From Amphiscolops sp. MND2022 (lineage: Eukaryota), in the NCBI GenBank assembly GCA_964187785.1, contig OZ076420.1, positions 11,470,001 to 11,534,000 on the forward strand: 64,000 nt of DNA, written 5' to 3'. Under the pieces are notes generated by a model. It was not told the origin of the DNA. It saw only the letters and a program-made list of their open reading frames with translations, and did not search any database. The stretch's first letter is position 1. Every line of letters starts with the position of its first letter. The position numbers and the translations under genes are program-made. Positions 4,178-27,690 of the stretch are shown one piece after another.

Positions 4178-4716
4178 TTACCATGACGCTGCGCCCTGGT
4201 ACTCCCTTTCTTTGCTTACTGATCCTGCTGTACTCTGACCGACGTCTGAAATCGCACTAGAAGAAACACCAGCAGTCGACATCCGGGCCCTCCACTCCTC
4301 AACTTGCCCCGAATAATACGCTGTGTAACATTGGAATAGACTACTGCAAATACTTGCACGAGGATGACGACTTACATCAGTACACGGATCAAATTCACTA
4401 CGAGCCAGGAACTGATGCCCAACGGGCAGATTGACTTTCAGCTCTTTAAAACATCCCACTGTTAGCAAATCACGTGCCGTAAACTTAGGATGGAGCACAA
4501 ACGACTGTACTGCACCCAGACCAGGACGGATGACGCTTGTTGGCAGATTTGTCCCACTCATAGAAATGTCAACAGCAGGCATAGCAACAGGAGCAGAACT
4601 CACAATGACCCGTACAAGCCGAACTGTCTGCTTTACATGAGTCCGACACTGATAGCTTGCATCGCTTTCCAGATACGTAAACACATCTCCAGTCTGAGAC
4701 GAATCCGTTGACTGTT
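4178..4716 (-). pseudogene. 3' end of hAT-transposase-derived gene (continuation of ORF 24412..25305 across the Polinton)
   Basis: Removing the Polinton and one TSD joins gtc atc gat cta cgt caa cag tca = VIDLRQQS in frame; open to the stop at 4178. Resembles the hAT C-terminal dimerisation region, but AMPAVDISMS replaces the S-x-x-x-x-E-R-x-F-S motif. Confidence 0.8.
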
Positions 4717-4722
4717 GACGTA
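4717..4722 (+). repeat. Polinton target-site duplication, left copy (GACGTA)
   Basis: Identical hexamer at 24417-24422; 6-bp TSDs are typical of Polintons. Confidence 0.95.
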
Positions 4723-5121
4723 AGTAGTAAGAGTAGGAGCTGATCAGGTGGGGGGGTTGGAAGACCCTCCATGTTTTAACATAGGCTATAGCGAGCCGAG
4801 AGCCGAGGAGGGTCTTCCACCCCCTGACCAAGACTGGGCTAATTGTTGTTCGATTCTGATTGTCTGAGGACTCGTCTTGGGTTTTTCGTGTTCGATTCTG
4901 ATTGGCTGACGACTCGTCTTGGGTTTTTTCGATTGACCTGTCTCTGTGAATGGAACCGAGATTTGCTATAGTTTCGTCAATGTATAAAGATAGTGAATAG
5001 ATTCGGCAATGTTTTAAGATAGTGAATAGCGTTTTTTTTCGGTGCTGTAGGGTTTTTCGGCACTGTGCGACATTTTCGGCACTGTGAGATTTTGGGTAAA
5101 AAATTAATTTTTGGTGGCTGC
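4723..5121 (+). repeat. Left terminal inverted repeat
   Basis: Reverse complement of 24021-24416 with scattered mismatches. Confidence 0.95.
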
Positions 5122-5128
5122 AACACTT

Positions 5129-6114
5129 TCAGTGGCGTAGTATTCTAATGTGTCTCAATCCAAACTTCTGATACCAGGATGGGTTTTCCGTAAGGGAACC
5201 CGTAAAGGCAGAATTTGTGTTCATTGCTATGGCAATTCGTCGGATGGGTGCATTGTTGAAAATGTTGTCTTGTATAAATTGATTCTGTCGGGCGGGAATG
5301 ATAAAAGTTTTGGCAAGTATTTCCAAGTAGTTGTATTCTACTGGACTGCGTGCTAGCATATCCATTCGCTTTTTGTGATAATTGTCTTTGAGTGTAATAC
5401 AACGGTTATAAAGCGAACAGTCAACAATTCCAAGGCTAACGTTACGGTTCTCACTAATCATGTAAAAAGTGGGTCGAGCTTTGATGAGTCGGATGCTTAC
5501 TTTCATGTTTGGATACAATAGACATCTTCCATACAACATGAATCCGTCGGGTCTGGTGTGCATTTTAATTCTCCTTGAAAAGAATGGATCCTCCAAGGGT
5601 GCATCCATACCATCTTCCGGATTTGCTTCAAAGTCATACCCTCCGCAATGTGACACTCCCCTATACTCCGAGATGGCCCCTTTAAAAATGTTTGAAGTTT
5701 AAGATTTATGAGCATAAAGTCCATTTGAATTGTAACTTTGCTGATTGTTATATAAACTTCCACATTGGAGAAAATAGAGTGCATAATGTTGTTCACATGG
5801 GTAATTAAGGGAACCTCGTCATTGTCGTCGGTATCACCCTTTTTATCTTCCCCCTCATTGTGTTCCTCTTTGACTTCTTTTTTGTACAATTTCACCAATT
5901 TCAGTACCAAAGACAAATACGTTTGACGCAAATCAGTGTAATTGTTGCGATTAGTTTAAAATTCAAACTCGATACTGTTTTCGTCCAATGACATTGTAGG
6001 ATAAATTTGTTGTTCATGCGAGGAAAGTACGTCATCGACAACTGGGACTTTACCGCCCACACCACCAGAAACGGCCACAAAAGGTTGGTACCGGAAATTG
6101 TTTTGTACATTCAT
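5129..6114 (-). pseudogene. MCP: Major capsid protein (double jelly-roll, PY), frameshifted and 3'-truncated
   Basis: SLDENSIEFEF, DLRQTYL, HVNNIMHSIFSNVEVY, TFIIPARQNQFIQDNIFNNAPIRRIAIAMNTNSAFTGS..NP; ends abruptly at RILRH* beside the TIR. Confidence 0.88.
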
Positions 6115-6116
6115 GT

Positions 6117-6422
6117 TTAGTGTGAAATGTTTGTAAAAATATCTCTGCACGAGCGACTATTTATGTTGGTTGATTTTGTAGGAATGAATCTGCGCATTCT
6201 CTTCTTACTACCACCACCTAGTTGCTTCCTCAACGTCTTTTTGCCAACACTAGTTTCAGCTGATTTTAAATTTTTCTTTCCCCTAATTACTTCTGCCATT
6301 TCAGGTACAGCATATTCCAACAAGTCAGCTCCAACTCTTCGTGCAAGTGCTCCAAATCCTCTTCCACGTTGTCTGGTTACTCCTCTATAATATGGTAATT
6401 CAAGTTCTCTTGAGGCGACCAT
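6117..6422 (-). CDS. Small basic Polinton protein with QRGxGxG motif (PW/core-protein-like)
   Basis: Intact 101-aa Lys/Arg-rich ORF with YYRGVTRQRGRGFGALARR, located between mCP and MCP as is common in animal Polintons. Confidence 0.65.
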   Translation of the reverse strand: MVASRELELPYYRGVTRQRGRGFGALARRVGADLLEYAVPEMAEVIRGKKNLKSAETSVGKKTLRKQLGGGSKKRMRRFIPTKSTNINSRSCRDIFTNISH

Positions 6423-6440
6423 TTTGCACAGTGTTTAGTG

Positions 6441-7246
6441 TTAGTAATGGATGTCAGAAACTTTTCTAAACATTAGCACATGCCGTGTGATTCCAACAGA
6501 GACAAATGGAATCTTTTCACCCGAGGTATATCTTAAGTCAATATGAATACTATGAAAGGAATTTTTCAATAGACGACGATATTGAAGGTTACTACTAAAA
6601 TTTTGGTAATTCATGTATTGTCCAGTAGTAATTATGCCTCCTGATTTTAGCTTGGAAATGAAAGGGAAGCAGCGTAATAGGGGTGCTTTCGTGTCTCCAA
6701 CAATGTTGTACTACACAATATCAGTGTAAATCATTAGCGAATGAATACGAACAAAATCGTACGCAAACTTTGTCTCCTGAGGTCCCTTGCCTCGCATCAA
6801 AATTCCCTTGTCATCTCCAACATCTCCACCAAAAATCTTTCCCAAATCTGTACTGAAAATGACTAGGCTAGAGTCTTCACTAATGAGGAAGAGTTCGATT
6901 TTTTGTGTGCGACGAGATACTTTAACAGTAATCCAATTTTCATTGTGATTGTTTCTCTCTTGTATAAGCAAATTCATTGCTTCCACAATGTCGGGTACGG
7001 AAGAACACAACCCAAGTTCCAAGTAATAGCACTTGTCGTCTTGGAGTAATTTGGGTAATAAAATAGAAATTTCCCATCTGTAAAATTCTGGTACATTGAT
7101 GGGTAGGAAATTTCCAAAATTGCAACCTCCCATTGACCATCCAAATTGACTTGATCAGGCAAAAAGTTTGTAAATGAACTTAGGGTATTGTCAGGAAACA
7201 GTCCAGATGAGGCATTAGAGACCAACTCTATTGTAAAGGAATCCAT
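6441..7246 (-). pseudogene. mCP: Minor capsid/penton protein (PX)
   Basis: MDSFTIELVSNAS..FPDNTLSSFTNFLP..NLDGQWEVAI.EI.YP, then SLMIYTDIV*YNIVGDTKAPLLRCF; one frameshift and one stop. Confidence 0.88.
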
Positions 7247-7248
7247 AG

Positions 7249-8187
7249 CTAAATGACTCTAATCAGTTCCTTTTCGTAAAACTTGCCTTTTGTATCTTCG
7301 CCTTGTTCACCTAGTATATGATATGTGGGCGGTTTGCGTGTAGCAAGTGCAACAATTTTAAAAATTTCGTTTGTAAATTGTGGCTTGTATCCTTTTCTGA
7401 ACGGTAAATCCTGCTAGGAAATTCGAACGCGGTATCCAACTTTGAACTTTGGTTTGTTAAAGTCTTTGATTGGTTTACTGTATAGCAGAGCCATAAAATC
7501 AGAGTTTTTAACATTGCTCGGCTTTATATCTATTGATCTATTTCTTGTCGTATTCAGCGTTGTAACAACTTGAGGCGGCTTGTGAATATACTTGTATCCG
7601 TAGTCTTCAATGTAGCGATACAATACATTTTTCAATGAACGAATAGCTCTCTCGGCGAATGCTGCCTTTGTTTCACTCATTAATGAGTAAATTTGTATTC
7701 CTTCTCTGTTGCAAAATTTTCTAAATTCACCAGCAAATTCGTTCCCCTTGTCAACCCAAATCTTTTGTGGTCTTTTCCGCCTTGTAATCATTTGCGCAAA
7801 GGCTCTAAGTGCCTCCTTATAGTCCTTTGTTTTCAATCCTCTCACGTCAATTGTTTTGTCAAACACATCCTGGTGAACTAGCAAGTACTTTATGCCTCTG
7901 TTATCTTTTGCCAGTTTATCAACATATGCCAAGTCCATACACCAAATTTCATTCTTGTATCTGGAAAATGCTCTCATACGTCTAAACTTGCGTGTTGCAA
8001 GTGTAAATTTTGTATAAGAGTCTTTTGAATGTAAAAACTGCCTAACCTTGGAAACGGGTAGCTTGCTAGCTTTTGCCAAATTTCGTACAGAGCCATATGC
8101 TGCAGGTCCTCGTGTATATAGTCTTTGAAGCTTTTGCCGTTCAGATTTTGAAAGGGATCCAGTTTCCTCTCTCTTTTGCTTTGGCAT
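7249..8187 (-). pseudogene. pINT: Retroviral-like (c-integrase) DDE integrase
   Basis: WCMDL (D), IWVDKGNEF (D), AERAIRSLK (E), PKFKVGYRVRIS; frameshift near 7414, C-terminus ...FYEKELIRVI*. Confidence 0.93.
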
Positions 8188-8554
8188 TCTGATTGAGCAC
8201 TATACTAGGGGAAATGTCGGCTGCGTCCAGTAAAGTAAAGAAAATGTCGGGTACGTCAGCGTTCTTTCTACGCAAATGTCGAGCAAAATCGTGCAACAAT
8301 ACTCCGGTATCTGTACCGTTTAGCACGATAGTGTTAGAGAGAGACAACTTAATGCGTGGGGAAGCTAATAGTTTATCAACCAATTAATCTGCCTTGGCAA
8401 ACAACTTTTTGTTAATATCCTTTTTCAGCGAATCAACTTGGGACGTAGGAGTTTGTTGAGGTTGATATTTGGGTAGGTCCACTTTTAACGTCGTGGACTT
8501 TGTTGTGTTTAGCTTGTTGAGAAGTGAAGTCGGTACGAGGACAAACTGTTCCAT
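8141..8554 (-). pseudogene. Polinton hypothetical protein (~137 aa, one in-frame stop)
   Basis: ORFs 8384..8578 and 8141..8383 are in the same frame, separated by one stop; ends KERGNWIPFKI. Confidence 0.55.
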
Positions 8555-8555
8555 A

Positions 8556-8800
8556 TCAAGACAAGTGAATAATGACAAATGGGGTAATGGTGTCAGCCAG
8601 TTGTAAACCTCTCTCGGACGTCAAGAGATTTCGTCTCTGCTTCCACGTAGTCCGCTTTAGAGATAGTAAGTGTAATTCTCGTTTATATTTAATAACGTGA
8701 TGTCCTTTTACGCTTTGCAAGTTTCCTTTGAGTATGTATACTATGCACTCGCTTAGACACCGAATAAATTCTTTTTTTTGGACACGATTGGAGAAATTGT
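8556..8800 (-). pseudogene. Small basic Polinton protein (ECxxxxLKGN motif; putative core protein)
   Basis: KEFIRCLSECIVYILKGNL...KRELHLLSLKRTTWKQRRNLL resembles a conserved Polinton small ORF; now fused in frame to the ATPase tail. Confidence 0.5.
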
Positions 8801-9524
8801 GACTTTTGCACTTGCGGGAAAATGGTTGGAACGCGTGGAGAGGAGAATAGAGAGATTTTTTGTGCTCATCGTCCAAAGTTATCAAGTGTTTCAAACTCTC
8901 TGGCACGTAAAAGTTTGATGGAGTCTTTCCACTGTTTTTTTTAATAACGTAATCTTTCGTCTGTTCGCGGCGATAAATCAATGAGGAAACAGACGTTTCA
9001 CCAAAAAGAACAGACGTTGCACCTCTTTACCAATCCACTAGTGACGAACCTAGTCCTAGTTGGTTAAATACTAAGTGTATTCATTTGCATAACATCCCGA
9101 GGCGACTTGAACAATGCAATATGTGTAGTTTGTAGCTCAATATCGCGTCCGAGAGTGCTCTTGTGGAACAAGTTGTGTTTAATGTGTATAGTGCTAAGTC
9201 CACAGTGGCAATTTTGACAAATTCTTTGGAACTGCACACTTCCTCACAAGAGTCGTCAAAAATGAGGAGATACTTTGTTTCATTGTGTTTCAATGAATCA
9301 ATCAACTCAAAATTCACTCCCTTGACAAACTCGATACAATCAATTTCTTTTTGCATCTTGTCGTATAGTGATTGATAATACTGGTAAAAAAAGTAAATCT
9401 TGTCAAATTTGGGTTGAAAAGTTCCATTAGTTAGTCACTCGTAAATCATCTATGTTTTACCAGATTCACTCGGTCCAACCATGGACATAAAGACACGGTT
9501 TTTGGTGGAAATTAATTTGTTCAT
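8790..9524 (-). pseudogene. A32/FtsK-HerA-like genome packaging ATPase
   Basis: MNKLISTKNRVFMSMVGPSESGKT* (Walker A), YLLIFDDSCEE (Walker B), LFKSPRD, LIDLSPRTDERLRY; stops and frameshifts. 3' boundary approximate. Confidence 0.88.
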
Positions 9525-9834
9525 AGTCTCGGCGTTGTATGTATTCTCCAAAAGCTGCCCAAAATAATCAACAAAATGATAAAAAAAATTGGGACAAGAA
9601 CAGAGTTAATGATCTAGAGCAGGTTTGTCCCACGCACGTCCAGGATTTGCGTTCACTATTATTTCCGTCAAAACCAATTTTTTCCAAGTTGAGGTTAGAC
9701 CCAGTCATCTAGCTTACTAGTGAGTGAGAGTGTATCTTTAAGAATGTATCTCCTTTTAGTTCAAAAATGTAAGTTGAATAAAAAGTTTAAATTTATATAA
9801 ACGAGTAATACAAACACGTACAAAATTTTTACAA

Positions 9835-10272
9835 ATTGAAATGTTGCACAGTCCAATCTCCAAACGCCTTTGTTTTCCGCTCGGCACATTGTAGATTCGT
9901 TTTGTGTCTTTATGGATAGCTAGAGTACATCCAGTCAGTGTTTAAATGTTGACAAACATAGTCATCCAAGTTTTCCACCTCCTTGCCCAGTAATGTGCTT
10001 AAAAATTTACACTTTTCCCATCCTTTTGCAAAGTACTCTGCTCTATAATGTCGCAATTCAGACAACATGGTGTTGATACGGCTATAGTCCAGTGCACCAC
10101 TTTTCCAATGAATTTTTTGCAAATTTTTGGTACACCAGAGTGTTTGATGTGTTGGTTGATAATTTTTGGGTGGTTCGAAGGAATATCCAGATACTTGTCC
10201 GTCAATAAAAACACCCAATTCTTTGACTATATTCTGTTCTGCGAGTTCAATATCCATCACTATGAGCGACAT
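9835..10272 (-). pseudogene. DEDD/DnaQ-like exonuclease-family protein
   Basis: MSLIVMDIE (ExoI-like DxE), KELGVF, IHWKSG, FAKGWEKCKFL, ENLDDY; resembles Maverick-associated DnaQ-like ORFs. Confidence 0.55.
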
Positions 10273-10399
10273 GACTAAAAGTCTACTAAATTGAAAATGG
10301 AGGGAAGAAACAATTTCAAGTAGAAGCAATAGAAAAGTCCAGTCACGTGACCCAATGAACACGAGTTGGGGCCTCGACCAATCAAAGAACAGTATCCTG

Positions 10400-10803
10400 G
10401 TCCTTTACCGTTGTGTAAATAATTAGCGCCAGCAGCGTCGTTTAGTATTGCATGTAGTCTAAACACTTTGGAAAAACAAAAAATTTTGTCCAAGTGAGAG
10501 CCTCCATAGCCAATTAATCCTCCAAAAGGAAATTCTTGGTCCATTTCGTGGAGTGAAATATTTTCGTCCAAGCAATGACATACACTAAGAAACAAGTTTT
10601 TACGTACAGTATTATTTGTAAAACGGAGCTTCAACCCTGAGTAAAAGCGAAATACGTTGACTAGAAAAATTACGTCCATTTAGGGTAAAGTAATACTCAA
10701 TTATGAATTGTGGATTCATCCAATACGATGCATCGCTTGTAGAATGTATCCAAATAGCAATCGCAAATAGCAATCCAAAGTATAACATACAATCGCTTAG
10801 CAA
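10400..10803 (-). pseudogene. Possible secreted or membrane protein remnant
   Basis: Signal-peptide-like MLYFGLLFAIAIWIHSTS followed by overlapping ORF 10275..10679 in another frame. Confidence 0.25.
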
Positions 10804-11173
10804 GTAACGTCTTGTACTCTGCTAGCTTTAATCAATTTCAGTATCCTTGAGGTATGTATTATTGCGATACAATGTCTACTTTGTCTGTATCTGTTTGAAA
10901 TCCTACGCAAATTGTACGTCTACCATTGTAAATTGTCCATTTAAGGCAAGAAATTTCATCCTCGCGGTGTTCGAATTCTGGTAATTGTTGCAATTCGGCT
11001 ATTGTTAGATTAATTTTTGTGCGAGATGATTTTGGTGTTGTAAGGACAACATGATAAAGTACCAATTATGTTTTCAATCTAAGAAACAAATTTCTATTTT
11101 CGCCAATGTTCCAACTCATTCTTACTAGGTTGATTGCAAAAATGAAAGTTGTATAAAAAAGTTTGCAATTTAT

Positions 11174-11830
11174 TCAAACAATTTTACAAAGTTGTTTATT
11201 AAGTACTTGATCACAAACAGAATTCATTACATCTAGTAAATTTATAACTTCAACGATTTCATAGTTCACATAGACAAGTTGTTGAAAATTTTCTTCCTCC
11301 GTCCTGCGTGTAAAGAGTCGTATCTGCGCGTAGGATGTTTCGGGCTTGTCCTCCTTGTAGCGCAGCAATGTAACACACACTTTCCGCTGGGCTCCCTCTG
11401 CAATCTCGATCACTTTGTGAACGTGCTTTAGTTGTTCGTCAATGTCTCTAGATAGTCCCACCACATTGATGTAAGGCAAATTTTCCTCCTTTGTAAAATT
11501 GTCTGCAGCAACAATCAACTGATTTCTCAACCGCAAGCACTATTTAAAGTCGTACTGTCCCAGCGAAACCCACTGATATCGCTTGAATTCGTTGGCAATG
11601 TCTTTTTTAAAGACTTTGAAGTGCACCTCCAAGTCCTTCTTTTCATTTTTGGTCCACTAAAAGCGTCCATATCCAAAGTGCACAAAGTCGGTACAAAGCG
11701 ATTTGTCTAAAGTTGCATTCATTGCAGATTCCATTCCACGGCTGGTTCTTGTCAAGATTGAGTTCTGGGTGAAGTAGGGTTGATCGTAATAATCGTCAGA
11801 GTCGATGTTGGGTTCTGGTACAGGCAACTT
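11174..11830 (-). pseudogene. Putative tandem PC4-like ssDNA-binding protein
   Basis: Upstream piece KDLEVHFKVFKKDIANEFKRYQWVSLG, then ORF 11174..11536 (KVCVTLLRY...YAQIRLF...QLVYVNYEIVEV); repeated beta-rich unit ending in a helix. Confidence 0.4.
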
Positions 11831-11896
11831 TTGTTTAGCGATTCAAATTGAAATTATGGTTGGAAATGAAAATATACTTGCTTTTATACTACTATG

Positions 11897-12068
11897 GTCA
11901 CGTGACTATTTCATATTTGGAAATGTATACGCCTCGTTTTCCATAAAAGGAAGACATTCCTTTTAAGGTAATGTTTATTCTGTCATTCAAAATGATTACG
12001 TTATTTTTCCATTTTTGGTAATGACTGCACTTCCTTCTATGGAAGTCACGTGACTATTCCTTTTGAGG
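11897..12068. promoter_or_regulatory. Divergent promoter with CArG-box cluster flanked by GTCACGTGAC E-box palindromes
   Basis: CC(A/T)6GG at 11941, 11959 and 12009; one-mismatch copies at 11911, 12033 and 12059; GTCACGTGAC at 11897 and 12045; lies between divergent ORFs. Confidence 0.7.
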
Positions 12069-12120
12069 TAACAATTCCATCATTTCAGATTCATTTTGTA
12101 AAACAAAAACACAACGTTCA

Positions 12121-12614
12121 GATGGCTGCTGTGATGATGCAAGTTTTTCCAAGTTTTTACTCCGTATACTCTAAAAAGAGTGTACACATTTGTGCAAACA
12201 CTTTTGAAAAGTATCTTGTCAGCAAAGACTATTGCGTTGCTCAACACGATGATTCCATGCGTTCCCAATTGTAAATATCACATTTTACTTATTGCTGAGA
12301 GGGATAATATTGACTTGATGCAAAAATTGGACACTTTTTGTTTTACATATCAGTTGGTCGACTGCCTTTATACATTATTCAAGTATCGCTTCGATGGGAA
12401 GATTGTTACTAAAAACGGACAAGTATTTGACAATATTGAACGAGCTGTATTCAATCAACGCCACGAGACGGTTGAAAGAATGCCGAGTATAGCAAAAAAG
12501 AGGCTGTTGCGAAAAAAAATCATTTTATGTATGATACAAGAGACATTCGCTGAGTTCGTTGCAAAAGACAGTTTCAACACAGACGAGCGGATCAGTTTTT
12601 GCAGACAGGATTGA
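12121..12614 (+). pseudogene. Polinton hypothetical protein (frameshifted)
   Basis: MAAVMMQVFPSFYSVY... (12121) shifts into ORF 12180..12614 (PNCKYHILL...); the only + strand gene in the left arm. Confidence 0.5.
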
Positions 12615-12730
12615 ACAGGTTAAAAAGACTAAATATGAAGTGGAATTGATAAAAATTGTAGATTGTTTATTAGATGATTACGGTACCTATGATAGTAATT
12701 TAGTATCTTTTAAAATTAAATCTTTGTAAA

Positions 12731-12937
12731 CTAACCATTGTTTTCTTCAACGAAATGAGACTTGTAGAGATCGTTAGGAAGTCTCATAATGGCAACAAAT
12801 AGACCAAAGAGAGCTGCGATTTCAACGACTGCTAGTAAGAGCAACAAGAAAGCTCCATTAGTGCAAACTGTACCCCATACTATGTCACGAAGGTCGGAAC
12901 ACTTGCTCATACTTGACTGAAATGCACACTTTTGCAA
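12731..12937 (-). pseudogene. Transmembrane ORF remnant (possible C-terminal part of an EGF-like precursor)
   Basis: CAFQSSMSKC (C-x8-C) followed by hydrophobic AFLLLLLAVVEIAALFGLFVAIM and a short tail. Confidence 0.35.
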
Positions 12938-12949
12938 GTAAATTTATAT

Positions 12950-13250
12950 ATTGTGTCAGATTTTAAAGTAAAATTTGTACAACGTGTCAGATTTTCTCGC
13001 AAAATTTTTACAACGTGTCAGATTTTAAACGAAATGAAAAAATTAAAAAGACAGATATAGAAGGCGTTTTTTTTATTAAAAAGACAGGTTTTCACCCATT
13101 TTACTCCGTAAAAACGACAAATTTTGCACTCGCGATACATTATTAAAAAGACAGGTTTTGAAGCAAAAGTTTTTACGTCTTGTCTGATTTTAAAGTAACT
13201 TTTTAACAACGTGTCAGATTTTGAAGTAACATTTTTACGTCAAATCAGAT
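12950..13250. repeat. Short dispersed repeat block
   Basis: gtgtcagatttt x4 (~12953, 12984, 13014, 13211) plus variants; ttattaaaa(a)agacaggtttt x2 (~13074, 13141). Confidence 0.75.
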
Positions 13251-13445
13251 TTAAACTGAGAAATTTTTGCACAAGACTAACAATCCTAATTCCCCTCCCT
13301 CGTTCAGACAATAGTCCTTGTACTCTTCAACGCAGGGATCCAGATCTCGTCCCACTTTTTCTGTAGTCCTTACTTGATATATAAACACGCTAGCAGTCAT
13401 GCCAATAATCAATGCTACCACAATTTTTGCTATGGTCTCACACAT
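13251..13445 (-). pseudogene. EGF/ErbB-ligand-like growth factor, truncated
   Basis: Hydrophobic N-terminus (IVVALIIGMTASVFIY), then DPCVEEYKDYCLNEG = C1-x7-C2 with Y-C-L-N-x-G as in EGF-family ligands; later cysteines missing. Confidence 0.55.
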
Positions 13446-13485
13446 AACGACTGATTTGAAAAAGAATGTGAATAAGAATAATAAT

Positions 13486-14093
13486 TCAATTTAATGCACG
13501 CAATAAATACAAATAATATTCAAACACACTACGATACACAGAGTTTGGTATAGTTTCCAAACAAGTCCCGAATGGACGGCTCAGGGACCTATGCAGCGGT
13601 GGCGGCTGCGTGGGTCTCTGCGACTCGGGTGTTGTGGGGTACTCGTTCTCTTTTTCTTGTTCATCGTCAATCTCTATAGGGTAGTCTGCGCTTCCAGCAA
13701 CATTAAAGTTTTCAAACAGTGACGGAGGGAAGGGAGTATCAATGCCCGGACGATACACTGCATCCATGTCTATGTTCGGATTCTCCCAATGGAACTGAAC
13801 ATTGTCCAGGTCGCTGGGAACAAAGTCACTGCTTACATCTTCATCACCCACGATGGCCCGAACCTCGTCTTGCATCTCCAACGTGCCTTGTTGGTTGGGA
13901 GTTATGGGGACGCGAGCTAAATGATTGTCCAGGAACTGTTGTCTTTGATTTATCAAAGAGTTGAAGGCTGCAAATGGAAGTTCCAAGGAGGAAATTGTCA
14001 AGTCTTGGACGATATCTTTAACAATAATTGTGACAGAGTCTGGTGAAAAGTCCAATGTCCTCTGGGTTCCGTTGTTGGAGACTGAGAAGAACA
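13486..14093 (-). CDS. Acidic, Pro-rich Polinton accessory protein
   Basis: Long open frame (part of 13486..14265) starting MFFSVSNNG; D/E-rich centre and PTTPESQRPTQPPPL tail. Confidence 0.55.
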
Positions 14094-16025: not shown

Positions 16026-19000
16026 ATGCCTGCTCTCTGTCGAAATCAAAAAGTTACCTGTGACAATTGTGGGACTCTAGTATCCAAACAAAACCTGGCC
16101 AAACACAAAAAGAAATTTTCAGTTGGGACATTGTATTGCTCCCGAAGCCGCAATTTCTCAACAAAGTCCCAAAAAGACTTGAATTTCCACATTGAAAGGA
16201 AGCATGAAACTTCCAACTCTAAAACGACACACACTTGTAAAGAGTGTAAAGGGGAATTCGCTGGCTTTTATGCACTACGTCAACACAAAAGTAAAATGCA
16301 CTGTCTTAAGTTGAAAAAAGCCGATTCGTCACCCGTTGTGGATGATATCGATGATGACAGTCTCAAATAAGAGCTACGTGCATGTGAACACTTTCTCGGG
16401 GACTCTGAATTGAACGTGGACGACATAAAGTGTGTAATTAAGCTGTGGAGACACTAAACACGGAAATTGTTAATGATAAACTTGATCATTTCTTTAACAA
16501 CTTGAAATGTGCCGCAAAAGTTAACCTCGCATTTGGATTCATTTTAAAAAATTGGAAGATGGACGTTACAGATATTTCTACGCGTACGAAAACAATACTC
16601 TGTTGGATCGATCACAACTGGTGTGCACCAAAGACGACCGTACCAAATTGAAAAACAATGTCAATCAAACTGACGTAATTGAATCTTGTACCAGAGAAAG
16701 GATGAATACAAAATGAAAATTTTACAAGCTCGCCAATCTAACTGTGTTTGCTTCTTTGCTCAAAGACATTCCCATGGGTTGTTGAGATGCTGTACTCCCT
16801 GATCCACTACTGAAAAACCATACTGTCAACTGTTTGACATTCGAGCAGAACACTAGACAACCCTATAACGACAACTTGTGTTTATTCAGAGCATTAGCAC
16901 TTCATCTCCACGGAAATGAAAAATTGGAGGAAGAGACTTGCAAATTGTTCAATTGTTATTTGGAAAAGAAAGGAAGAATAGAACCAGCAACCTTCCAAGG
17001 TGTCTGCATGGACGATATTCCTCTTGTTGAAGACCTGATTCAAGTCAATATCTTTCTTTACGATATCGACATTGTCGATGAATCACTTGTTGGTGAACTC
17101 GCACGGCGGAGTGTACAGAAGTATTGCAACACTGCCAGGTTACTGCGTTACAATAACCACATTTGCTACGTCTCCAATATCAATGCATTATTTAAAGCTT
17201 ATCGTGGCTCAACTTGTAACCAGTTTTCCAACAAAACTGGAAACTTGGAGCGTCATTTGGTTATTTGGAAGGAACGCGTCAAACACGTTTATCCGAGAAA
17301 TTTTTATCGGTTGAGGGAAACACTGTTTGATAAACTCGACTTCTTTTCCATACCTTACACAAAAGAACAGCAATTGTTCAAAAATTTGGCCATTTTTAAC
17401 TTTGAATCAATTTGTGTGAAAGAGGATCAATTCAAGGATACCGAGACAACACATTGGATTGGAAAGCACGTGCCGATATCTGTATCTATAGCGTCCAACT
17501 TGATTGAGACACCAATATTTCTCTGCAATTCCAACCCGCAAGATTTGATTGAATCATTTGTTGTTGCTCTGGAGAGTTTAGCCACACAGAGCAAGGCTCA
17601 AATGTAGCTGCAGTTTTTAGATATCGAGACTACCATCAGAAACCGTCTCAATGCAATTTTTGTTGTACTGAATGAAAGACGTGGTCCAAGAGAAACTGTG
17701 TTGGACGTTGAAGATGAATGTCTTGAGGAAGAAGAAAAAGACGCTTCTACTCAGTTCTTGCAAATGCAAAAGAATCAACTCCTTGACTTGCAGGGACACT
17801 TGGAGAGATATTGCAACGTGTTACCAATCTTTGGCTTCAACAGTTCCAAATACGACATTAACCTTATCAAGCGTTATTTATTACCCTTATTGGTTAATGA
17901 GAGAAAATTGGAGCCAACAGTAATTAAAAAAGCGAATCAATTTGTCTCTTTCAAATTTGGGGATGTTCAATTGCTGGACATTCTGAATTTCTTGGGCGGA
18001 GCAACCAGCCTTGATTCTTTCCTGAAAGCTTACAAGACGTCAGAGACGAAAGGATACTTCCCATACGAATGGTTTGACTGTCTTGAAAAGCTAAATGACA
18101 CGGAATTACCCCCTTACGAATCATTTTTCAACAAGTTGCGAAATTGCAACCCTCTGGAGAGTGAGTATACTCAATATGAAAAATTGCTCAAGAGTTGTTC
18201 AACATCAGTGTCTGCCTTGAGCAAGTTGCGGTTGAGTCAACCTCCTCTCACAGGGAAGCAAAATTATGAGTATCTCGTCAATATATGGGAGAGTGAGAAA
18301 ATGACTACGTTCAAAGATTTCTTGCGCGGGTACAATAACAAGGACGTCGTTCCCACACTGGCGGCAATGCATAAAATGATCGCATTTTACCACCTCAAGG
18401 GAATTGATATGTTGAAGCTTGGTTGTACTTTACCCAATTTAGCCAACATATGCGTCCACAAGTCAACAAATGCGAAATTTTATCCTTTCACAGAGAACGA
18501 TAAAGACTTGCTTGAAAAGATACGAGAGGATATGGCTGGAGGTCCATCCATTGTATTTACAAGAAAAGCTGTTGTAAACGAGACGCTTATCCGGGATTCA
18601 GCAAACGTTTGCAAGTCATTAGTGGGCATTGATTCTAGTCAGCTTTACCGCTTCTCAATGTGTCACGAAATGCCTACTGAACTTTACACGCGATGGGATC
18701 TTGAACCAGAGTCTTGCCGATTCAGACCCCGCCAGAACAAGACGAGGAGCTTTGAGAATATGGTAATGTCTTACTATTAACGAATAAGACCAGAGTGTAA
18801 AATTGTCAGCTTTTACACCACAGGAACACATAAACAAATTGTCTGCTTCAGCGTTGACGGGTTCTGCGAGCATTGCAACAATGTATTTGAAGTCATCGGG
18901 CGCTAGTATAATTACTGTCCGTGTCAAGAAGCACGTCCTTCGCTTACAGAGGAAGAGATTCAGAAGGGAACAAAAAAGAGAGAGATGGATGAGTTGCGAA

Positions 19001-20270
19001 GACATCATTTAATGGAGAAGGGGTTTACAGTTATAGAGCTGTATGAGTGCGAATGGTGGCAACTTTACAAGATCGACGGTATAGTCAAGCAACTTTTACG
19101 TGAATCTTTTCCCTACAAAATACCTCTCAGTGAAGAGAGACTGTTGGACAGGATCAAGAATGGATATGTTCAGTGTGATATTGAAGTTCGTCCAGAGCTC
19201 CGCGAACACTTTGCCAACTTTCCCCCCATCTTTAAAAATGTCAACGTGAGCAGAAACGACATTGGATCTTTGATGAAAAGTTACGCTGAACAAGAGGGAC
19301 TTTTATCACAACCGAGACGAATGTTAATTTCAAGCTTTTCGTTGGAGAATGGGACACTAATAACACCTCTGTTACTATTTTACTTGAGCTTCGGGCTTGT
19401 GTGTAAGAAGATTTATCGTTTTGTCCAGTATACCCCAAAGAAATGTTTCAACAATTTTGTCCAGTCCGCAGTCGATGCAAGAAAGGAAGGAGATGAGAAC
19501 CCCAACTCGCGTGTTGTAGCAGAGACAATGAAGCTGCTTCCAAACAGTTCCTACGGCTATCAAGTTATGGACAGGAGCCGTCACACTGTCACAAAGTATT
19601 CATTTATGTGGCCAGAAAGTTCACGCAGCTATCAACAAAAAATTGTTTAAACGTTTGAACATTATCAACGAGAAGTTGTACGAGGTAGAGTTTATAAAGT
19701 CCGAGATTGAACACAGAGAGCCGATCATTGTTGGTTTTTTCATTCTGCAATATGCTAAACTGAGAATCTTGGAGCTCTATTACAACTTTTTCGCCACGTA
19801 TTGTGACATTAAAAAGTTTGAGGAGCTTGAAATGGATACAGACTCACTTTATCTTGCATTAGCTGAAGAAAAATTATATGACTGTATTCGTTCTGACATG
19901 AAAGCAGAGTACAAAGCACAAGAAACATGACAAGCGGGAACCTGGACTCTTCAAGGAAGAATTTCGCAGCACAGAAATGTTGTGACTGTGCAGCAAGACG
20001 TACTGCTGTTATGACTCTTGTTCACTTAAATTCAAGTTTAGCAGTAAAGGACCAAACAAGAGAACACTTGAAAGCAGTGGTGACGGTCCTATGTCCATAT
20101 AACGAAAAGTTTTGGAAGAGACAGTCAACGTGGCTTCAACTAATCGTGGTTTTCGTACAATTGATCACAATGTGGGTACTTACGAATCGACGAAAAAGGG
20201 ACTCTCTTATTTTTATCCCAAGCGTATTGTTCAGGAAGATGGAATTCACACTCGTCCACTAACTATATGA
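16026..20270 (+). pseudogene. pPolB: Protein-primed DNA polymerase B, copy 1 (with N-terminal C2H2 zinc fingers)
   Basis: Exo motifs (IFNFESI, FNSSKYD, YNNKDV); polymerase motifs GIDSSQLY, KLLPNSSYG, MDTDSLY; Vsr-like insert (VDGFC...ELYECEW); C-terminal KRIVQEDGIHT.P; many stops and frameshifts. Confidence 0.95.
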
Positions 20271-23200
20271 TACTTCTATACTTTTTAAAATACATTTGTA
20301 TTTCATTTATACATTATAAATTAATTTTTTTTCTACCTAAACATGATGCTGTACTCCCTGATCCACTACTGAAAAACCATACTGTCAACTGTTTGACATT
20401 CGAGCAGAACACTAGACAACCCTATAACGACAACTTGTGTTTATTCAGAGCATTAGCACTTCATCTCCACGGAAATGAAAAATTGGAGGAACAGACTTGC
20501 AAATTGTTCAATTGTTATTTGGAAAAGAAAGGAAGAATAGAACCAGCAACCTTCCAAGGTGTCTGCATGGACGATATTCCTCTTGTTGAAGACCTGATTC
20601 AAGTCAATATCTTTCTTTACGATATCGACATTGTCGATGAATCACTTGTTGGTGAACTCGCACGGCGGAGTGTACAGAAGTATTGCAACACTGCCAGGTT
20701 ACTGCGTTACAATAACCACATTTGCTACGTCGTCAATATCAATGCATTATTTAAAGCTTATCGTGGCTCAACTTGTAACCAGTTTTTCAACAAAACTGGA
20801 AACTTGGAGCGTCATTTGGTTATTTGGAAGGAACGCGTCAAACACGTTTATCCGAGAAATTTTTATCGGTTGAGGGAAACACTGTTTGATAAACTCGACT
20901 TTTTTTCCATACCTTACACAAAAGAACAGCAATTGTTCAAAAATTTGGCCATTTTTACCTTTGAATCAATTTGTGTGAAAGAGGATCAATTCAAGGATAC
21001 CAAGACAACACATTGGATTGGAAAGCACGTGCCGATATCTGTCTCTATAGCGTCCAACTTGGTTGAGACACCAATATTTCCCTGCAATTCCAACCCGCAA
21101 GATTTGATTGAATCCTTTGTTGTTGCTCTGGAGAGTTTAGCCACACAGAGCAAGGCTCAAATGTAGCTGCAGTTTTTAGATATCGAGACTACCATCAGAA
21201 ACCGTCTCAATGCAATTTTTGTTGTACTGAATGAAAGACGTGGTCCAAGAGAAACTGTGTTGGACGTTGAAGATGAATGTCTTGAGGAAGAAGAAAAAGA
21301 CGCTTCTACTCAGTTCTTGCAAATGCAAAAGAATCAACTCCTTGACTTGCAGGGACACTTGGAGAGATATTGCAACGTGTTACCAATCTTTGGCTTCAAC
21401 AGTTCCAATTACGACATTAACCTTATCAAGCGTTATTTATTACCCTTATTGGTTAATGAGAGAGAATTGGAGCCAACAGAAATTAAAAAAGCGAATCAAT
21501 TTGTCTCTTTCAAATTTGGGGATGTTCAATTGCTGGACATTCTGAATTTCTTGGGCGGAGCAACCAGCCTTGATTCTTTCCTGAAAGCTTACAAGACGTC
21601 AGAGACGAAAGGATACTTCCCATACGAATGGTTTGACTGTCCTGAAAAGCTAAATGACACGGAATTACCCCCTTACGAATCATTTTTCAACAAGTTGCGA
21701 AATTGCAACCCTCTGGAGAGTGAGTATACTCAAAATGAAAAATTGCTCAAGAGTTGTTCAACATCAGAGTCTGCCTTGAGCAAGTTGCAGTTGAGTCAAC
21801 CTCCTCTCACAGGGAAGCAAAATTATGAGTATCTCGTCAATATATGGGAGAGTGAGAAAATGACTACGTTCAAAGATTTCTTGCGCGGGTACAATAACAA
21901 GGACGTCGTTCCCACACTGGCGGCAATGCATAAAATTATCGCATTTTACCACCTCAAGGGAATTGATATGTTGAAGCTTGGTTGTACTTTACCCAGTTTA
22001 GCCAACATATGCGTCCACAAGTCAACAAATTCGAACTTTTATCCTTTCACAGAGAACGATAAAGACTTGCTTGAAAAGATACGAGAGGATATGGTTGGAG
22101 GTCCATCCATTGTATTTACAAGAAAAGCTGTTGTAAACGAGACGCTTATCCGGGATTCAGCAAACGTTTGCAAGTCATTAGTGGGCATTGATTCTAGTCA
22201 GCTTTACCGCTTCTCAATGTGTCAAGAAATGCCTACTGGACTTTACACGCGATGGGATCTTGATCCAGAGTCCTGCCGATTCAGACCCTGCCAGAACAAG
22301 ACGAGGAGCTTTGAGAATATGGTAATGTCTTACTATTAATGAATAAGACCAGAGTGTAAAATTGTCAGCTTTTACACCACAGGAACACATAAACAAATTG
22401 TCTGCTTCAGCGTTGACGGGTTCTGCGAGCATTGCATCAATGTATTTGAAGTCATCGGGCGCTAGTATCATTACTGTCCCTGTCAAGGAGCACGTCCTTC
22501 GCTTACAGAGGAAGAGATTCAGAAGGGAACAAAAAAGAGAGAGATGAATGAGTTGCGAAGACATCATTCAATGGAGAAGGGGTTTACAGTTATAGAGCTG
22601 TATGAGTGCGAATGGTGGCAACTTTACAAGATCGACGGTATAGTCAAGCAACTTTTACGTGATTTTTTTCCCTACAAAATACCTCTCAGTGAAGAGAGAC
22701 TGTTGGACAGGATCAAGAATGGAAGCCTCTTTGGATATGTTCAGTGTGATATTGAAGTTCGTCCAGAGCTCCGCGAACACTTTGCCAACTTTCCTCCCAT
22801 CTTTAAAAATGTCAACGTGAGCAGAAACGACATCGGATCTTTGATGAAAAGTTACGCTGAACATGAGGGACTTTTATCACAACCGAGTCGAATGTTAATT
22901 TCAAGCTTTTCGTTGGAGAATGGGACACTAATAACACCTCTGTTACTATTTTACTTGAGCTTCGGGCTTGTGTGTAAGAAGATTTATCGTTTTGTCCTGT
23001 ATACCCCAAAGAAATGTTTCAACAATTTTGTCCAGTCCGCAGTCGATGCAAGAAGGGAAGGAGATGAGAACCCCAACTCGCGTGTTGTAGCAGAGACAAT
23101 GAAGCTGCTTCCAAACAGTTCCTACGGCTATCAAGTTATGGACAGGAGCCGTCACACTGTCACAAAGTATTTATTTATGTGGCCAAAAAGTTCACGCAGC

Positions 23201-23908
23201 TATCAACAACAAAATGTTTAAACGTTTGAACATTATCAACGAGAAGTTGTACGAGGTAGAGTTTATAAAGTCCGATATTGAACACAGAGAGCCAATCATT
23301 GTTGGTTTTTTCATTCTGCAATATGCTAAACTGAGAATCTTGGAGCTCTATTACAACTTTTTCGCCAAGTATTGTGACATTAATAAGTTTGAGGAGCTTG
23401 AAATGGATACAGACTCACTTTATCTTGCATTAGCTGAAGAAAAATTATATGACTGTATTCGTTCTGACATGAAAGCACAAGAAACATGACAAGCGGGAAC
23501 CTGGACTCTCCAAGGAAGAATTTCGCTGCACAGAAATGTTGTGTCTGTGCAGCAAGACGTACTGCTGTTATGACTCTTGTTCACTTAAATTCAAGTTTAG
23601 CAGTAAAGGACCAAACAAGAGAAAACTTGAAAGCAGTGGTGACGGTCCTATGTCCAAATATAGAAAAGTTTTGGAAGACACAGTCAACGTGGCATCAACT
23701 AATCGTGGTTTTCGTACAATTGATCACAATGTGGGTACTTACGAATCGACGAAAAAGGGACTCTCTTATTTTTATCCCAAGCGTATTGTTCAGGAAGATG
23801 GAATTCACACTGGTCCACTAACTATATGATACTTTTATACTTTTAAAAATACATTTGTATTTCATTTATACATTATAATTTAAAATTTTTTTCTACCTAA
23901 ACATGATG
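16786..23908 (+). repeat. Tandem duplication, 3,559-bp period (16786-20344 / 20345-23908)
   Basis: Near-identical copies joined at a GATG microhomology (gttga-GATG-ctgt / acat-GATG-ctgt / acat-GATG-tttt). Confidence 0.95.
20345..23829 (+). pseudogene. pPolB: pPolB copy 2 (5'-truncated duplicate)
   Basis: Same motifs and same lesions as copy 1; retains the 12 bp (NGSLFGYV) deleted in copy 1. Confidence 0.95.
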
Positions 23909-23953
23909 TTTTTCCTCAACACAGAGTATTCAAGTAACTAGCTCAACCTTTAT

Positions 23954-24008
23954 GGCGGATAAAATATACCGCAGGCGGATAAAATTTTCCGCAGGCGGAT
24001 AAAATATT
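23954..24008 (+). repeat. 20-bp subterminal tandem repeat (ggcggataaaat core x3)
   Basis: Core at 23954, 23974 and 23994; no counterpart beside the left TIR. Confidence 0.85.
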
Positions 24009-24020
24009 GCGGGCGCCGTG

Positions 24021-24416
24021 GCAGCCACCAAAATTTAATTTTTCATCCAAAATCTCACAGTGCCGAAAATGTCGCACAGTGCCGAAAAACCCTACAGCAC
24101 CGAAAAACACCCCATTCACTATCTTAAAACATTGCCGAAGCTATTCACTATCTTTATACTTTGACGAAACTATAGCAAATCTCGGCTCCATACATAGAGA
24201 CAAGTCAATCGAAAAAACCCAAGACGAGTCGTCAGCCAATCAGAATCGAACACGAAAAACCCAAGACGAGTCGTCAAACAATCAGAATCGAACAAATATT
24301 AGTCCAGTCTTGGTAAGGGGGTGGAAAACCTTTCTCGGCTCTCGGCTCGCTATAGCCTATGTTAAAACATGGAGGGTCTTCCATCCCCCACCTGATCAGA
24401 TCCTACTCTTACTACT
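24021..24416 (-). repeat. Right terminal inverted repeat
   Basis: Reverse complement of 4723-5121; ends ...ctcttACTACT. Confidence 0.95.
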
Positions 24417-24422
24417 GACGTA
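24417..24422 (+). repeat. Polinton target-site duplication, right copy (GACGTA)
   Basis: Identical to 4717-4722. Confidence 0.95.
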
Positions 24423-27400
24423 GATCGATGACCAAAGACTTAAACTCGTTTACAGCTGCTTCCCGATCCAAACTGTCTAAATAACCAGCTTCCTGGAAAC
24501 AAGCGACCAAGTCCTGAAACAGCTCCACGACGTAATCAGCATTACCTCCCAGCAGCAAGTCCACACTCAGGCAACTGAGAGAACGGACGACCCAGGAGCT
24601 GGCATACGCCGAAGAACTAAGCTGCTTGAGAAACTCCAACAAGAAAGCCTGACACTCCCACAAGAAGGATCGTCGAGGCGCGTCGTCAAAACCACGCAGA
24701 GCCTTTTGAACGCTGGGTTCGCCCTGGAGACACTCAGCGGCAGTAACGTTAGGCCAACTTGTTAGGGGCTTGTCGATATAATCAAACCAATAGTCGATGG
24801 AGGGCAGCTGACTCACTTTCTTAACTTTACATAGAATACTCCAGTAGAAAAAACAGAAGTCAACAAAGTTTCTGCAGGCGTAATAATCTTTCACTGAAGG
24901 ATCAAACAATTTCTCACAAATGGTCCGAAAACACAACAACACAACATGCAGCAAAGCAAGACGAGGTAGCTCCAGACGATCCGAACAAAGCAAAGAATCG
25001 CGATCGACCACTTTGATAGATTTCTTCATCAAGAGCACATCATTCGCAAGACAATTCTTCACGTCCGACCAGTTTTCTAACAATTCCTCCAGGACATCCC
25101 ACAATGCATCAAATGGGACCGCACCATCTTCAAGACAGAGACGAAATCGTGGTAGATTCAGGAGCCATGCCTGATGACGAACCCGCTTCAAGCGCTGCGC
25201 CAAATATCCTATAACGGCAAATGGATCCACTGACCCAACACACGAGATGCCAGACTCGTTCACAAGCCCACGCAATTGAACCCCATCAAAAGATACTGCG
25301 ACCAATTAACAGGCCGCCCGACAGAACAGCACCAATCAACGTAAGCGTTGAAAAGGACAGGAGGGCAATTCTCTACAGCAAAAGTCCTCGACGAGTCGAC
25401 ACCAGTGACAAGGCCCGAGACAAACACTGAACCTCAGCCTCACAGGAAACAGCAGCCTGATCCTCGTCCACGATACAAATCTCTCGGGTAGAATTATCGG
25501 GGCAGCATCGGACGATGCACTTCACACCGGAGTGCGAAGACTGCAGCGCCAATCTAAAAGGGCTGTCCCCTAGCCCTGATTTTACTCGTCGCAACACACG
25601 AGGATACAGAGTCTGTACCAGTACCACTAAGGTCTCGGTCTTGCTCCAGGTCACCGACGCATAAGGACTTTCAACCGGCAGTGTGGTCCTGAATTGGTTC
25701 CATAGCCGGCGCAAGAAAACTTGGGATCCGCCACTACTCAAAAGCTCGAGTAAACAACCCACAAGCGTCGTAGATGGCACATTGAACGGGACGCCAACAA
25801 ATGCATCCACCTCGTCCTCGAGAAATTTGTTCATCTTGCCTAGAGTGATTGGAGGCGTCTTCTCAATTTCTTCCCGCAACTCTGCTGATATTCCACTAAG
25901 GGGAATGGCATCAAAACTCTCTGTATATATCACGTCCTCATGGTCAAACTGATACCTCCGATCTTTCAAATAGTTGCCGTTGCATTTGAAGTGACTCCAA
26001 ATGCGTCGGGGCCCTCGCGACAGGAACGAGACATCTTTTTGATAGACGGCACAATTGAACCCGTTCGGATTTTTGTCGTTGCGTCGGCTGACGAACAAGC
26101 GCGGGATAGGATGGCTACTCATAGCCTTGGTCAGGACATGACGTTCAGTCTGCCGCTTGGCTTTTTCCTCGTCGCGAGTCAATAGCTTCTCTTTCCGATC
26201 TTCAACAGGTTCCAGGATGCGGCCGGGATCACTGGCATCAATCCCTTTCGCTTTGGGTAATCGCGACAACTCCTCGAATTCTAAACACGACATTTTTCAA
26301 ACAACAAGCAAACAATACCAGACATACAAAACTACACACTAAGAGCACAACCGAATGACGAAACAACAATCACAGGAAAAACACAAAACAGTCCAACAAA
26401 CCGTTGATAGAATAGAAATACAGAAGGAATACTTACGCTTAGCCAAAGTCTTTGTCTCTTTCATGGTCTCAGTCCGTTCACTCCGAGCAGCACATTGAGC
26501 AAGCATTACACATTAGCATTACACATTTTGCGGCGGACATCATCATGGGGGATCCAGGAGGGACAGACTCCAACCCAGCTAAAAAGGAAAGGCAAACCGT
26601 AAGTATACAGCCAACGAAAACCAAGAAAGGACAACTAAGCGATAACAGAAAACACTAAACAACTTCCAGAAACCCAAAACCACCAATGTAAACTCAATTA
26701 AATCGTGGAAACAAGTAACTATACCTTTTTCCTACTCATTGTGGATGTGTGATGGCTCCAGACCAACTGCAGGGCAACCATGCTGAGTCCTCGAGAATCG
26801 CATCTGAAGATCTGGTAAAACTGAGACAGTTTCACTCTCGAGAGCAAGCGTATCCAGAGACTGCTCACAGACGAATACATCACTTTCACCTGATGAAGGC
26901 AACACAGCTTGTGACCCAGGATCAGCGACTATAACACAACCACTACTAAATATGTGAAGAGGGGACATTGAATAACCACAATAAACATACATCCATAAAT
27001 CTTTGATGCCATACAATAAGAATGAAGATAGAATACCTACTTTCAAGTGTTCTGGATGCAGAAATGGTGGGAGGCTCATCGTCGTCCCCAGAACTGTCGC
27101 ATAGTGTTAGGGGAGTACGAACAGTCCCAGACATAAACTCAGACAGCTTCACCCGTCTGGCAGGTCCCGCGCTCCCAACAGAAGGCACGCGACTGGCACG
27201 ACGCTTTTTCTTACTCTGTGATCGGGTACTGGAAGAAGGACAATAGTCAACATCAAGCTCATCATCAGTCACTAAAGAAAAGTAGAGAACGAGGAACGCG
27301 TTCGAATCACCTAGAAAAAGCTGGCCACCTATCAATTTCTAGAAAAAGATTACCTTTCTTGTTGGCAAGATAGTCAAGACCATGCCGGTCATCGCTAGTT

Positions 27401-27690
27401 GCAGAATCTAAAGTCCCAGTCTCAGCCTGACGCTCCACATCCTCACTATCCACGTCATTGTCAACATTTTTTGCGTCAAAAGCACAAACTTTCGGAACAT
27501 CAGCACCGGATCCAGCCTCTTCAGTCTCATCCTTCTCACCACTTCCAGTAGCTTCCTTCTCCCCACGAACGACAGACTCGACAAAAGACTCAGTTTCAAA
27601 TTCACTCTCTAATATCCCAGCTCCACGACTCTGATGCTGAATGACCTTGTCCTCTTCAGTAGCACTTCTGTCTCAAATCTTTCTGAAAAA
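24423..27690 (-). pseudogene. Multi-exon hAT-transposase-derived gene (5' and middle part)
   Basis: Introns 27311-27353, 26929-27040, 26579-26724 and 26281-26436 (all GT-AG, all phase 1); internal exons 270, 204 and 142 nt (129 after removing a 13-bp tandem duplication at 26502-26527). Protein: acidic region, FNCAVYQKDVSFLSRGPRRIWSHFKCNGNY (BED/U1-type Zn-finger-like, degenerate), then a hAT-like helical/RNase H pattern (DSPFRLALQ, LWDVLEELLENW, SLSCLS, AAVNEF). Confidence 0.75.

Follow-up and report, generated by a model that had tools for sequence, protein, structure and literature searches.

Why should an LTR (long terminal repeat) retrotransposon carry, on the strand opposite to gag and pol, a gene that resembles a DNA transposase? 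The question is raised by a window of 64,000 nucleotides (G000:C12:11470001-11534000, the whole stretch analysed here) from a eukaryotic assembly of 1.07 Gb, in which a sequence-only reading had recognised a spliced minus-strand gene of hAT transposase type beside the pol gene of a Gypsy element. We propose that this gene belongs integrally to the elements of a Gypsy clade, as an accessory gene on their antisense strand, and that its hAT-transposase-derived protein, instead of cutting DNA, likely binds it to regulate transcription of the element itself, a reading to which we give a probability of roughly 45%. A transposase turned regulator could then serve a different selfish element, and not just its host or its own transposon. 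For the most part, the accessory genes of LTR retrotransposons lack an explanation, and the antisense open reading frames (ORFs) of plant elements have no assigned origin; here the donor is recognisable and comes from another transposon class.

The carrier is, by its domains and termini, a Ty3/Gypsy LTR retrotransposon. Intact sister elements of about 15.5 kb comprise an LTR of 1.9 kb, a gag frame of 524 amino acids, one stop codon, a pol frame of 1920 amino acids, an antisense frame of 838 codons and the second LTR. Their LTR pairs are 99.5-99.9% alike and show TG..CA ends, the primer-binding site (PBS) begins with TGG, a polypurine tract (PPT) is present, and a target-site duplication (TSD) of 5 bp was found in all three sisters checked. 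Protease (residues 416-508), RVT_1 (819-984), RNase H (1054-1186) and integrase (1392-1560) domains follow one another in the intact sister pol, and gag families were matched upstream.

Judged by its linkage across the genome, the antisense gene is a fixed, integral part of the elements of this clade. Loci were taken from the best-scoring own-genome matches of close and distant proteins, so the sample favours well-kept copies. The gene lies tail-to-tail with pol at 7/7, 20/20, 10/10 and 39/40 of them, or 76 of 77 in total. LTR pairs, most of them 96-100% identical, were found in 17 of 20 stretches of 20 kb (one other was partial, one absent, and one stretch was taken from the wrong side) and in 9 of 10 more. 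The proposal that the gene is carried inside a Gypsy element was thus borne out, other sampled copies sitting within LTR-bounded elements and not between terminal inverted repeats (TIRs). The encoded proteins are 22% to 83% identical to P0001, an intact database protein of 834 residues related to the antisense gene product, and span five reverse transcriptase (RT) lineages. As each own-genome search scored only 40-150 of hundreds to thousands of candidates, the family should number at least several hundred copies.

Three further observations concern the carrier elements. In one element (L020:1648-3219) the gag frame begins within the 5' LTR and crosses the PBS. The shared frame of gag and pol, with a single stop between them, suggests read-through. 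Among the matches on C10, C8 and C5 there are also tandem arrays of the element with a spacing of about 13.6 kb.

The copy in the window itself is, by alignment to its relatives, a dead, Polinton-split copy of a Gypsy element of about 15.5-16.5 kb. Its pol and the two parts of the antisense gene's large last exon are placed as follows.

1..3805, plus strand: Gypsy pol, 3' portion with RT, RNase H and integrase, interrupted by stop codons and frame changes; RVT_1 match with E 3e-22, RT-integrase region 82-84% to that of the intact sister pol, stop codon at 3803-3805
4178..4722, minus strand: closing part of the antisense gene of predicted hAT fold, 3' end of its large last exon, stop codon at 4180-4178; 74% to P0001 residues 649-819, and translation
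4723..24416, no strand assigned: Polinton, a passenger inside the antisense gene and outside the Gypsy family; TIRs, TSD GACGTA, rve and DNA_pol_B_2 matches
24417..26280, minus strand: 5' part of the last exon, with C2H2 finger, helical domain, RNase H-like core and insertion domain; 83% and 81% to P0001, acceptor at 26281 kept in 7/7 copies

The Polinton has AGTAGT termini, TIRs of about 400 nt with 93-96% complementarity and a 6-bp TSD, GACGTA, present at both flanks; its coding content in Pfam is an integrase (rve) match and a weak pPolB (DNA_pol_B_2) match. On both flanks the minus-strand reading yields parts of a single protein with 74-83% identity to P0001, which aligns to window positions 26284-25385, 25421-25308, 25305-24415 and 4723-4211, so that the antisense frame resumes across the insertion, as had been proposed. 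No LTR separates the pol tail from the antisense gene, again as proposed; the gap between the two stops had been put at about 250 bp and measures 372 nt (3805 to 4178). The window copy is a pseudogene. Besides the Polinton, it has lost the start codon (absent at column 27669, where relatives have one), exon 3 contains an in-frame stop, exon 4 is thrown out of frame by a 13-nt duplication at 26502-26527, and the last exon changes frame twice, near 25420 and 25307.

Within the Polinton, the pPolB region lies in a tandem duplication of about 3.56 kb (16786-23908) whose units are 97.5% alike, either a recent duplication or an assembly artefact. A close relative of the window copy (G000:C4:60547600-60561530) carries a TIR-bounded Polinton-like insertion of about 14 kb in the same antisense gene, at another site near intron 3.

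Upstream of the last exon, the gene is divided as listed here, pN and pS being the proportions of nonsynonymous and synonymous differences.

27354..27669, minus strand: exon 1, acidic, without a start codon in the window copy; alignment, D/E making up 27 of 101 residues in an intact sister
27272..27353, minus strand: putative intron 1, 82 nt, with a second conserved AG at 27311; alignment
27041..27271, minus strand: exon 2, 231 nt, with a basic cluster resembling a nuclear localisation signal (NLS); open in 5/6 relatives, the sixth being a degraded copy
26929..27040, minus strand: putative intron 2, 112 nt; GT/AG alignment
26725..26928, minus strand: exon 3, 204 nt, with the in-frame stop of the window copy; open in 6/6 relatives
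26579..26724, minus strand: putative intron 3, 146 nt; GT/AG alignment
26437..26578, minus strand: exon 4, 129 nt in relatives, with the 13-nt duplication in the window copy; alignment, pN 0.09-0.14 against pS 0.55-0.82
26281..26436, minus strand: putative intron 4, 156 nt, phase 1; GT/AG in 7/7 copies, lengths of 142-164 nt that are not kept to multiples of three

In the seven aligned copies of the window's clade (clade I), GT and AG are kept throughout at the donors 27353, 27040, 26724 and 26436 and the acceptors 27272, 26929, 26579 and 26281, and all four introns are in phase 1. Exon lengths remain multiples of three in undamaged copies and intron lengths drift, and it is from this conservation that we infer splicing. 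The four phase-1 introns of the sequence-only reading are upheld, with a correction to the first, which is 82 nt long and not 43, leaving an exon 2 of 231 nt. The shorter version (acceptor 27311) breaks the frame in two of the five copies with otherwise open exons (M923 and O816), and the 82-nt version (acceptor 27272) preserves it in all five, as it does in the window copy. At 27311, an AG kept in 7/7 copies may be a minor or regulatory splice site. Intron 1 is also much better conserved than introns 2-4 and carries an inverted pair, CTAGAAA..TTTCTAG; a special RNA structure was considered there and rejected, its folding energy being ordinary (z 0.85 and -0.46).

Clade II and III introns lie elsewhere, within the core, near residue 248 and between residues 438 and 494; clade II has GT/AG at the homology breaks, and in clade III the acidic N-terminus is contained within one exon. 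Because intron positions differ among clades, upstream in clade I and in the core in clades II and III, introns must have come or gone while a retrotransposon carried the gene. The antisense orientation would allow them to travel unspliced in the genomic RNA.

The comparison of substitutions across copies, which had been suggested as a check, indicates that the gene is under strong purifying selection, with the nonsynonymous rate (dN) far below the synonymous rate (dS) in every exon. Over all five exons pN is 0.06-0.37 and pS 0.52-0.88, and dN/dS is 0.04-0.46 where dS is unsaturated. The last exon has a pN of 0.15-0.19 with saturated pS, and the pair A880/B893 gives a dN/dS of 0.06.

The full protein, predicted to have about 1,100 residues, is hAT-transposase-derived by its predicted fold but not a member of the active hAT transposases. 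An AlphaFold model of P0001, built from 17 sequences, reached a predicted template modelling score (pTM) of 0.67 and is confident over residues ~195-800. The ten best Foldseek rows are all Hermes (best E 2.3e-4). VIA likewise placed Hermes first (Z 13.0, root-mean-square deviation (rmsd) 5.0 A, 390 residues aligned), followed by ISCth4 at 6.1 and RAG1 at 5.2, and in a comparison with 48,161 chains Hermes scored Z 11.7 and the runner-up 6.2. The predicted domain order and fold, the zinc finger and a tryptophan resembling W319 (W402, in 26/26 rows) are shared with Hermes (PDB 4D1Q/6DWZ/8EDG) and with FAM200, ZBED5, GTF2IRD2 and ZNF862-like proteins. ESM features lean towards the hAT-derived FAM200/ZBED5/ZNF862-like clusters (0.85-0.89), a lead only. 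The finger, C-x2-C-x16-H-x5-H, has invariant ligands (C106, C109, H126 and H132 in 27/27 rows) and no zf-BED match in Pfam. Relative to hAT transposases, the protein has an extra acidic N-terminus and about 100 additional residues past the hAT end. The N-terminal domain was modelled with a predicted local confidence (pLDDT) of 84, and its fold search returned nothing with E <0.001 in Foldseek and a top Z of 5.2 in VIA.

Hermes requires D180, D248, R318, W319 and E572 (PMC6027215). At the corresponding sites, placed by strand topology and not by residue-level superposition on Hermes, the D180 position holds D in 0/26 rows and E in 5, the D248 position D in 0 or 2 of 27 rows depending on the register, and the E572 position D/E in 6/27. 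In the aligned rows the CxxH histidine is not at its expected place and R318 of the RW motif is lost; the same motif patterns detect RW and the E motif in 8/8 genuine hAT ORFs of the same genome. Catalytic death, claimed earlier, is supported by this motif loss at topology-mapped sites for the window's lineage; in lineage IIa, two of four rows (D238 and G257) keep an acidic residue at, or one position away from, each of the three sites.

The antisense gene is accompanied by a second accessory gene, which we call ORF-X. This ORF, the 3' LTR and the polypurine tract are additions to what had been read in the window before.

27670..27898, no strand assigned: putative divergent promoter with a TATA-like box at 27760-27769, an inverted repeat around 27777-27794 and a GCTGGCAGACT core; alignments
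27899..28496, plus strand: ORF-X, sense to gag-pol, acidic and Ser/Pro-rich, crossing the PPT into the 3' LTR; frame-shifted in the window copy, open frames in relatives
28354..28368, plus strand: polypurine tract, immediately 5' of the LTR in all sisters
28369..29840, plus strand: 3' LTR, beginning TGTCACAG; match to the 5' LTR

In the window's clade, some 230 nt separate the beginning of ORF-X from the start codon of the antisense gene. Of the 18 elements examined, 15 have ORF-X open over 176-301 amino acids and the remaining three have shorter pieces, and most clade III copies have similar open frames at its position. Its dN/dS is 0.07-0.19 where measurable, and it has no family match in Pfam or Atlas. 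In the spacer, the GCTGGCAGACT motif is common to clades I and III and not evident in clade II, and folding of the promoter hairpin is marginal (z about -2). The 5' LTR of the window element lies upstream of the window, together with the PBS, at G000:C12:11465322-11467283; the 3' LTR is about 490 nt shorter, and the pair are 94.6% identical over a local match of 2267 nt and 91.6% by global alignment. Before this 5' LTR lie about 880 nt (G000:C12:11464442-11465321) that belong to a different 3' end, with exon 1, promoter, ORF-X and PPT, a tandem or recombined structure that makes the copy's own TSD unreadable.

Comparison of closely related elements shows that the antisense gene is exchanged as a block, from the putative transcription start to just before the pol stop. 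In two pairs, C873/Q901 and M923/N838, the LTR, gag, pol and ORF-X agree at 94-100%, save for one 500-nt pol bin at 84%, but the stretch from just past the TATA-like box to some 70-120 nt short of the pol stop is only about 35-80% alike. In a third pair, G257/L245, the cassette differs and so does ORF-X. A census was made of the 61 elements with RT, integrase and finger domains, 16 of the 77 being dropped for missing domains. In 63 pairs both RT and integrase agree at 97% or more; the finger exon is at least 95% alike in 37 of these and below 85% in 26, with none between. As a control, of 82 pairs whose RT agrees to the same degree, none has an integrase below 85% (pairs are not independent in either count). 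Up to five cassette types occur on one RT backbone, and one type is spread over three backbones. No terminal inverted repeat was found at the cassette ends in the one intact copy searched, and the borders pass into promoter and pol. Near-identical backbones with differing cassette types offer a natural panel for comparing function, and they raise the question of what maintains several ancient variants on one backbone.

On a longer time scale, each of five RT-defined groups is set apart from the rest by a single branch, in the RT tree as in the finger-exon tree (37 representative rows, without outgroup), an agreement that fits one old capture followed by vertical descent. Homolog searches yielded no TIR-bounded, catalytically intact donor hAT, and gave only unnamed ENA or Logan proteins, all without Pfam domains; viral and metagenome contigs held no related locus. 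Three of the proteins, P0088, P0089 and P0149, have best own-genome matches of just 30-39%; their source may be another organism, or a family that was not scored.

From these elements we propose the following mechanism. A hAT transposase gene would have been captured once, long ago, in antisense orientation; it and ORF-X would be transcribed divergently from one common promoter. Activation or recruitment is the likely task of the acidic N-terminal exons, and DNA binding that of the finger with the transposase scaffold. The protein would most likely activate or de-silence its own family, and the cassette variants would have different specificities or encounter different host factors. All of these functional steps, activator versus repressor included, we infer. 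The role of element regulator has precedents: transposases and the transposase-derived TnpA of Spm activate their cognate elements (10.64898/2026.08.24.746577), and the VANC proteins of VANDAL elements de-silence their own families with diverging specificity (PMC5735166). Acidic N-terminus, basic clusters, finger and disarmed scaffold match, by analogy, the route from transposase to regulator taken by TnpA and by domesticated transposases. Like TnpA and VANC, the protein is element-encoded and of a kind whose specificity may diverge among families. Unlike them, as far as these sources describe, it is not a DNA transposon gene, and TnpA derives from its own element's transposase whereas the donor here belongs to another transposon class.

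Several observations weigh against this reading. The Hermes match depends on one 17-sequence model, with an rmsd of 5 A and 9% identity. No hAT signal appears in Pfam (including Dimer_Tnp_hAT), where control hAT ORFs score E 1e-11 to 4e-17; hhalign against the genome's 8 genuine hAT ORFs gave a probability <1%; and a PDB sequence search gave no hAT match. The hAT origin proposed earlier is thus carried by Foldseek and VIA and finds no echo in profile comparison or Pfam. The LTRs stay 95-100% identical despite cassette swaps, a poor fit to strict lineage-specific LTR recognition, so that the DNA site, if there is one, should lie within the cassette or be shared; the swaps are also compatible with a role in immunity or in host contact. 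Tandem target arrays of the VANC kind were not found in the cassette of the one intact copy searched.

A further reading concerns the exchange itself. The Gypsy clade would have turned a DNA transposase into a specificity cassette that comes in types and can be exchanged; each variant would recognise or exclude its own type, and ORF-X would be its partner from the shared divergent promoter. Phages swap immunity regions, and the cassettes would be swapped in a like manner. We put this forward tentatively, as something possible that we would not bet on.

Somewhat more doubtful is a strict immunity or incompatibility locus, in which the protein represses or excludes elements of its own type as a form of copy-number control and a backbone gains from carrying a rare cassette. 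The discreteness of the types, their distribution over backbones and the sharp cassette borders speak for such a locus, but template switching between co-packaged RNAs at conserved flanks, combined with gag-pol sweeps, could yield the same pattern without frequency-dependent selection.

The cassette might instead encode a suppressor of host silencing that acts by protein contact with the piRNA or chromatin machinery, with variants shaped by an arms race and DNA binding secondary. The gene diverges much faster than RT (22-83% identity beside close RTs), and accessory transposable element proteins, treated for Arabidopsis in PMC13547354, are predicted there to have many host contacts. The invariant finger ligands and a dN/dS that is low, not raised, speak against this, and we consider it unlikely.

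Transposase scaffolds bind and pair DNA ends, and the NLS-like clusters are present, so an integration cofactor that binds complementary DNA ends or target chromatin and guides the pre-integration complex also deserves mention. A similar role has been suggested for plant antisense ORFs (PMC7264820). Yet the gene is swapped independently of integrase and of the LTR ends, which makes such a function improbable.

More improbable still is that the protein remains an enzyme, a nuclease or transposase with an altered active site, in at least some lineages. It retains complete RNase H-like and insertion domains, D238 and G257 of lineage IIa keep their acids, clade III has E at the first mapped site in 9/9 rows, and in an alternative register of the third site, two residues further on, D/E occurs in 18/27. 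Against these stand the losses described above at all three acidic sites, at the CxxH histidine and at R318, and the lack of any TIR-like repeat at the cassette ends of the one intact copy searched. Last, a nested hAT transposon or host gene lying beside pol by chance is refuted by the linkage at 76 of 77 loci and the agreement of the lineage trees, the single locus without an opposed pol within 10 kb (L140) being a 259-residue fragment adjoining another element.

How far is the regulator proposed here a known thing? The plant Ty3/Gypsy elements Retand, Grande (gene23) and RIRE2 carry additional antisense ORFs between pol and the 3' LTR (PMC11963269, PMC7264820). These resemble the present gene in orientation and position, in being family-wide with their own promoter, and in being proposed nuclear DNA-binding regulators. 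They differ in encoding TRP28 (PF04195), described in these sources as restricted to flowering plants and not matched here, whereas for the present gene a complete hAT fold is predicted; it also has a divergently oriented partner ORF, occurs in exchangeable types and, in the window's clade, contains four conserved introns. From hAT transposases it differs in not retaining D180, D248, R318 and E572 at the mapped sites and in lacking TIRs and an 8-bp TSD, and from these and the hAT-derived host proteins alike in that its carrier is a retrotransposon and not a DNA transposon or host. HBZ of HTLV-1 is likewise described as an antisense nuclear regulator from the 3' end, but the protein is unrelated and the presumed promoter here lies inside the element, not in the LTR. 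Captured ORF3s are shared among bdelloid LTR retroelements (PMC5408684); the DEDDy or GDSL enzymes reported there have intact catalytic residues and are unrelated to the protein considered here. A hAT-derived gene in an LTR retrotransposon was not found described, judging by titles and the beginnings of abstracts, with most subscription papers, Repbase and Dfam outside the search; the elements may already be catalogued without recognition of the gene. Antisense accessory genes are therefore a known kind, and it is the hAT-derived version, with its unexplained typed-cassette behaviour, that is new here.

The rest of the window belongs to other repeats. Positions 35000-55000 hold a second, unrelated minus-strand LTR element with RT/RNase H, whose pol region is repeated about three times at a spacing of 3.2 kb and which contains no homolog of the antisense gene. 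One of its ORFs (40065-41213) matches the Pfam family Monjiviricetes_fusion with E 1e-15 and is env-like. From 55998 to 64000 the window consists of tandem units of about 2.89 kb, 98-99% alike, which have some 380 nt in common with 35692-36071 and are probably tandem LTR-like repeats.

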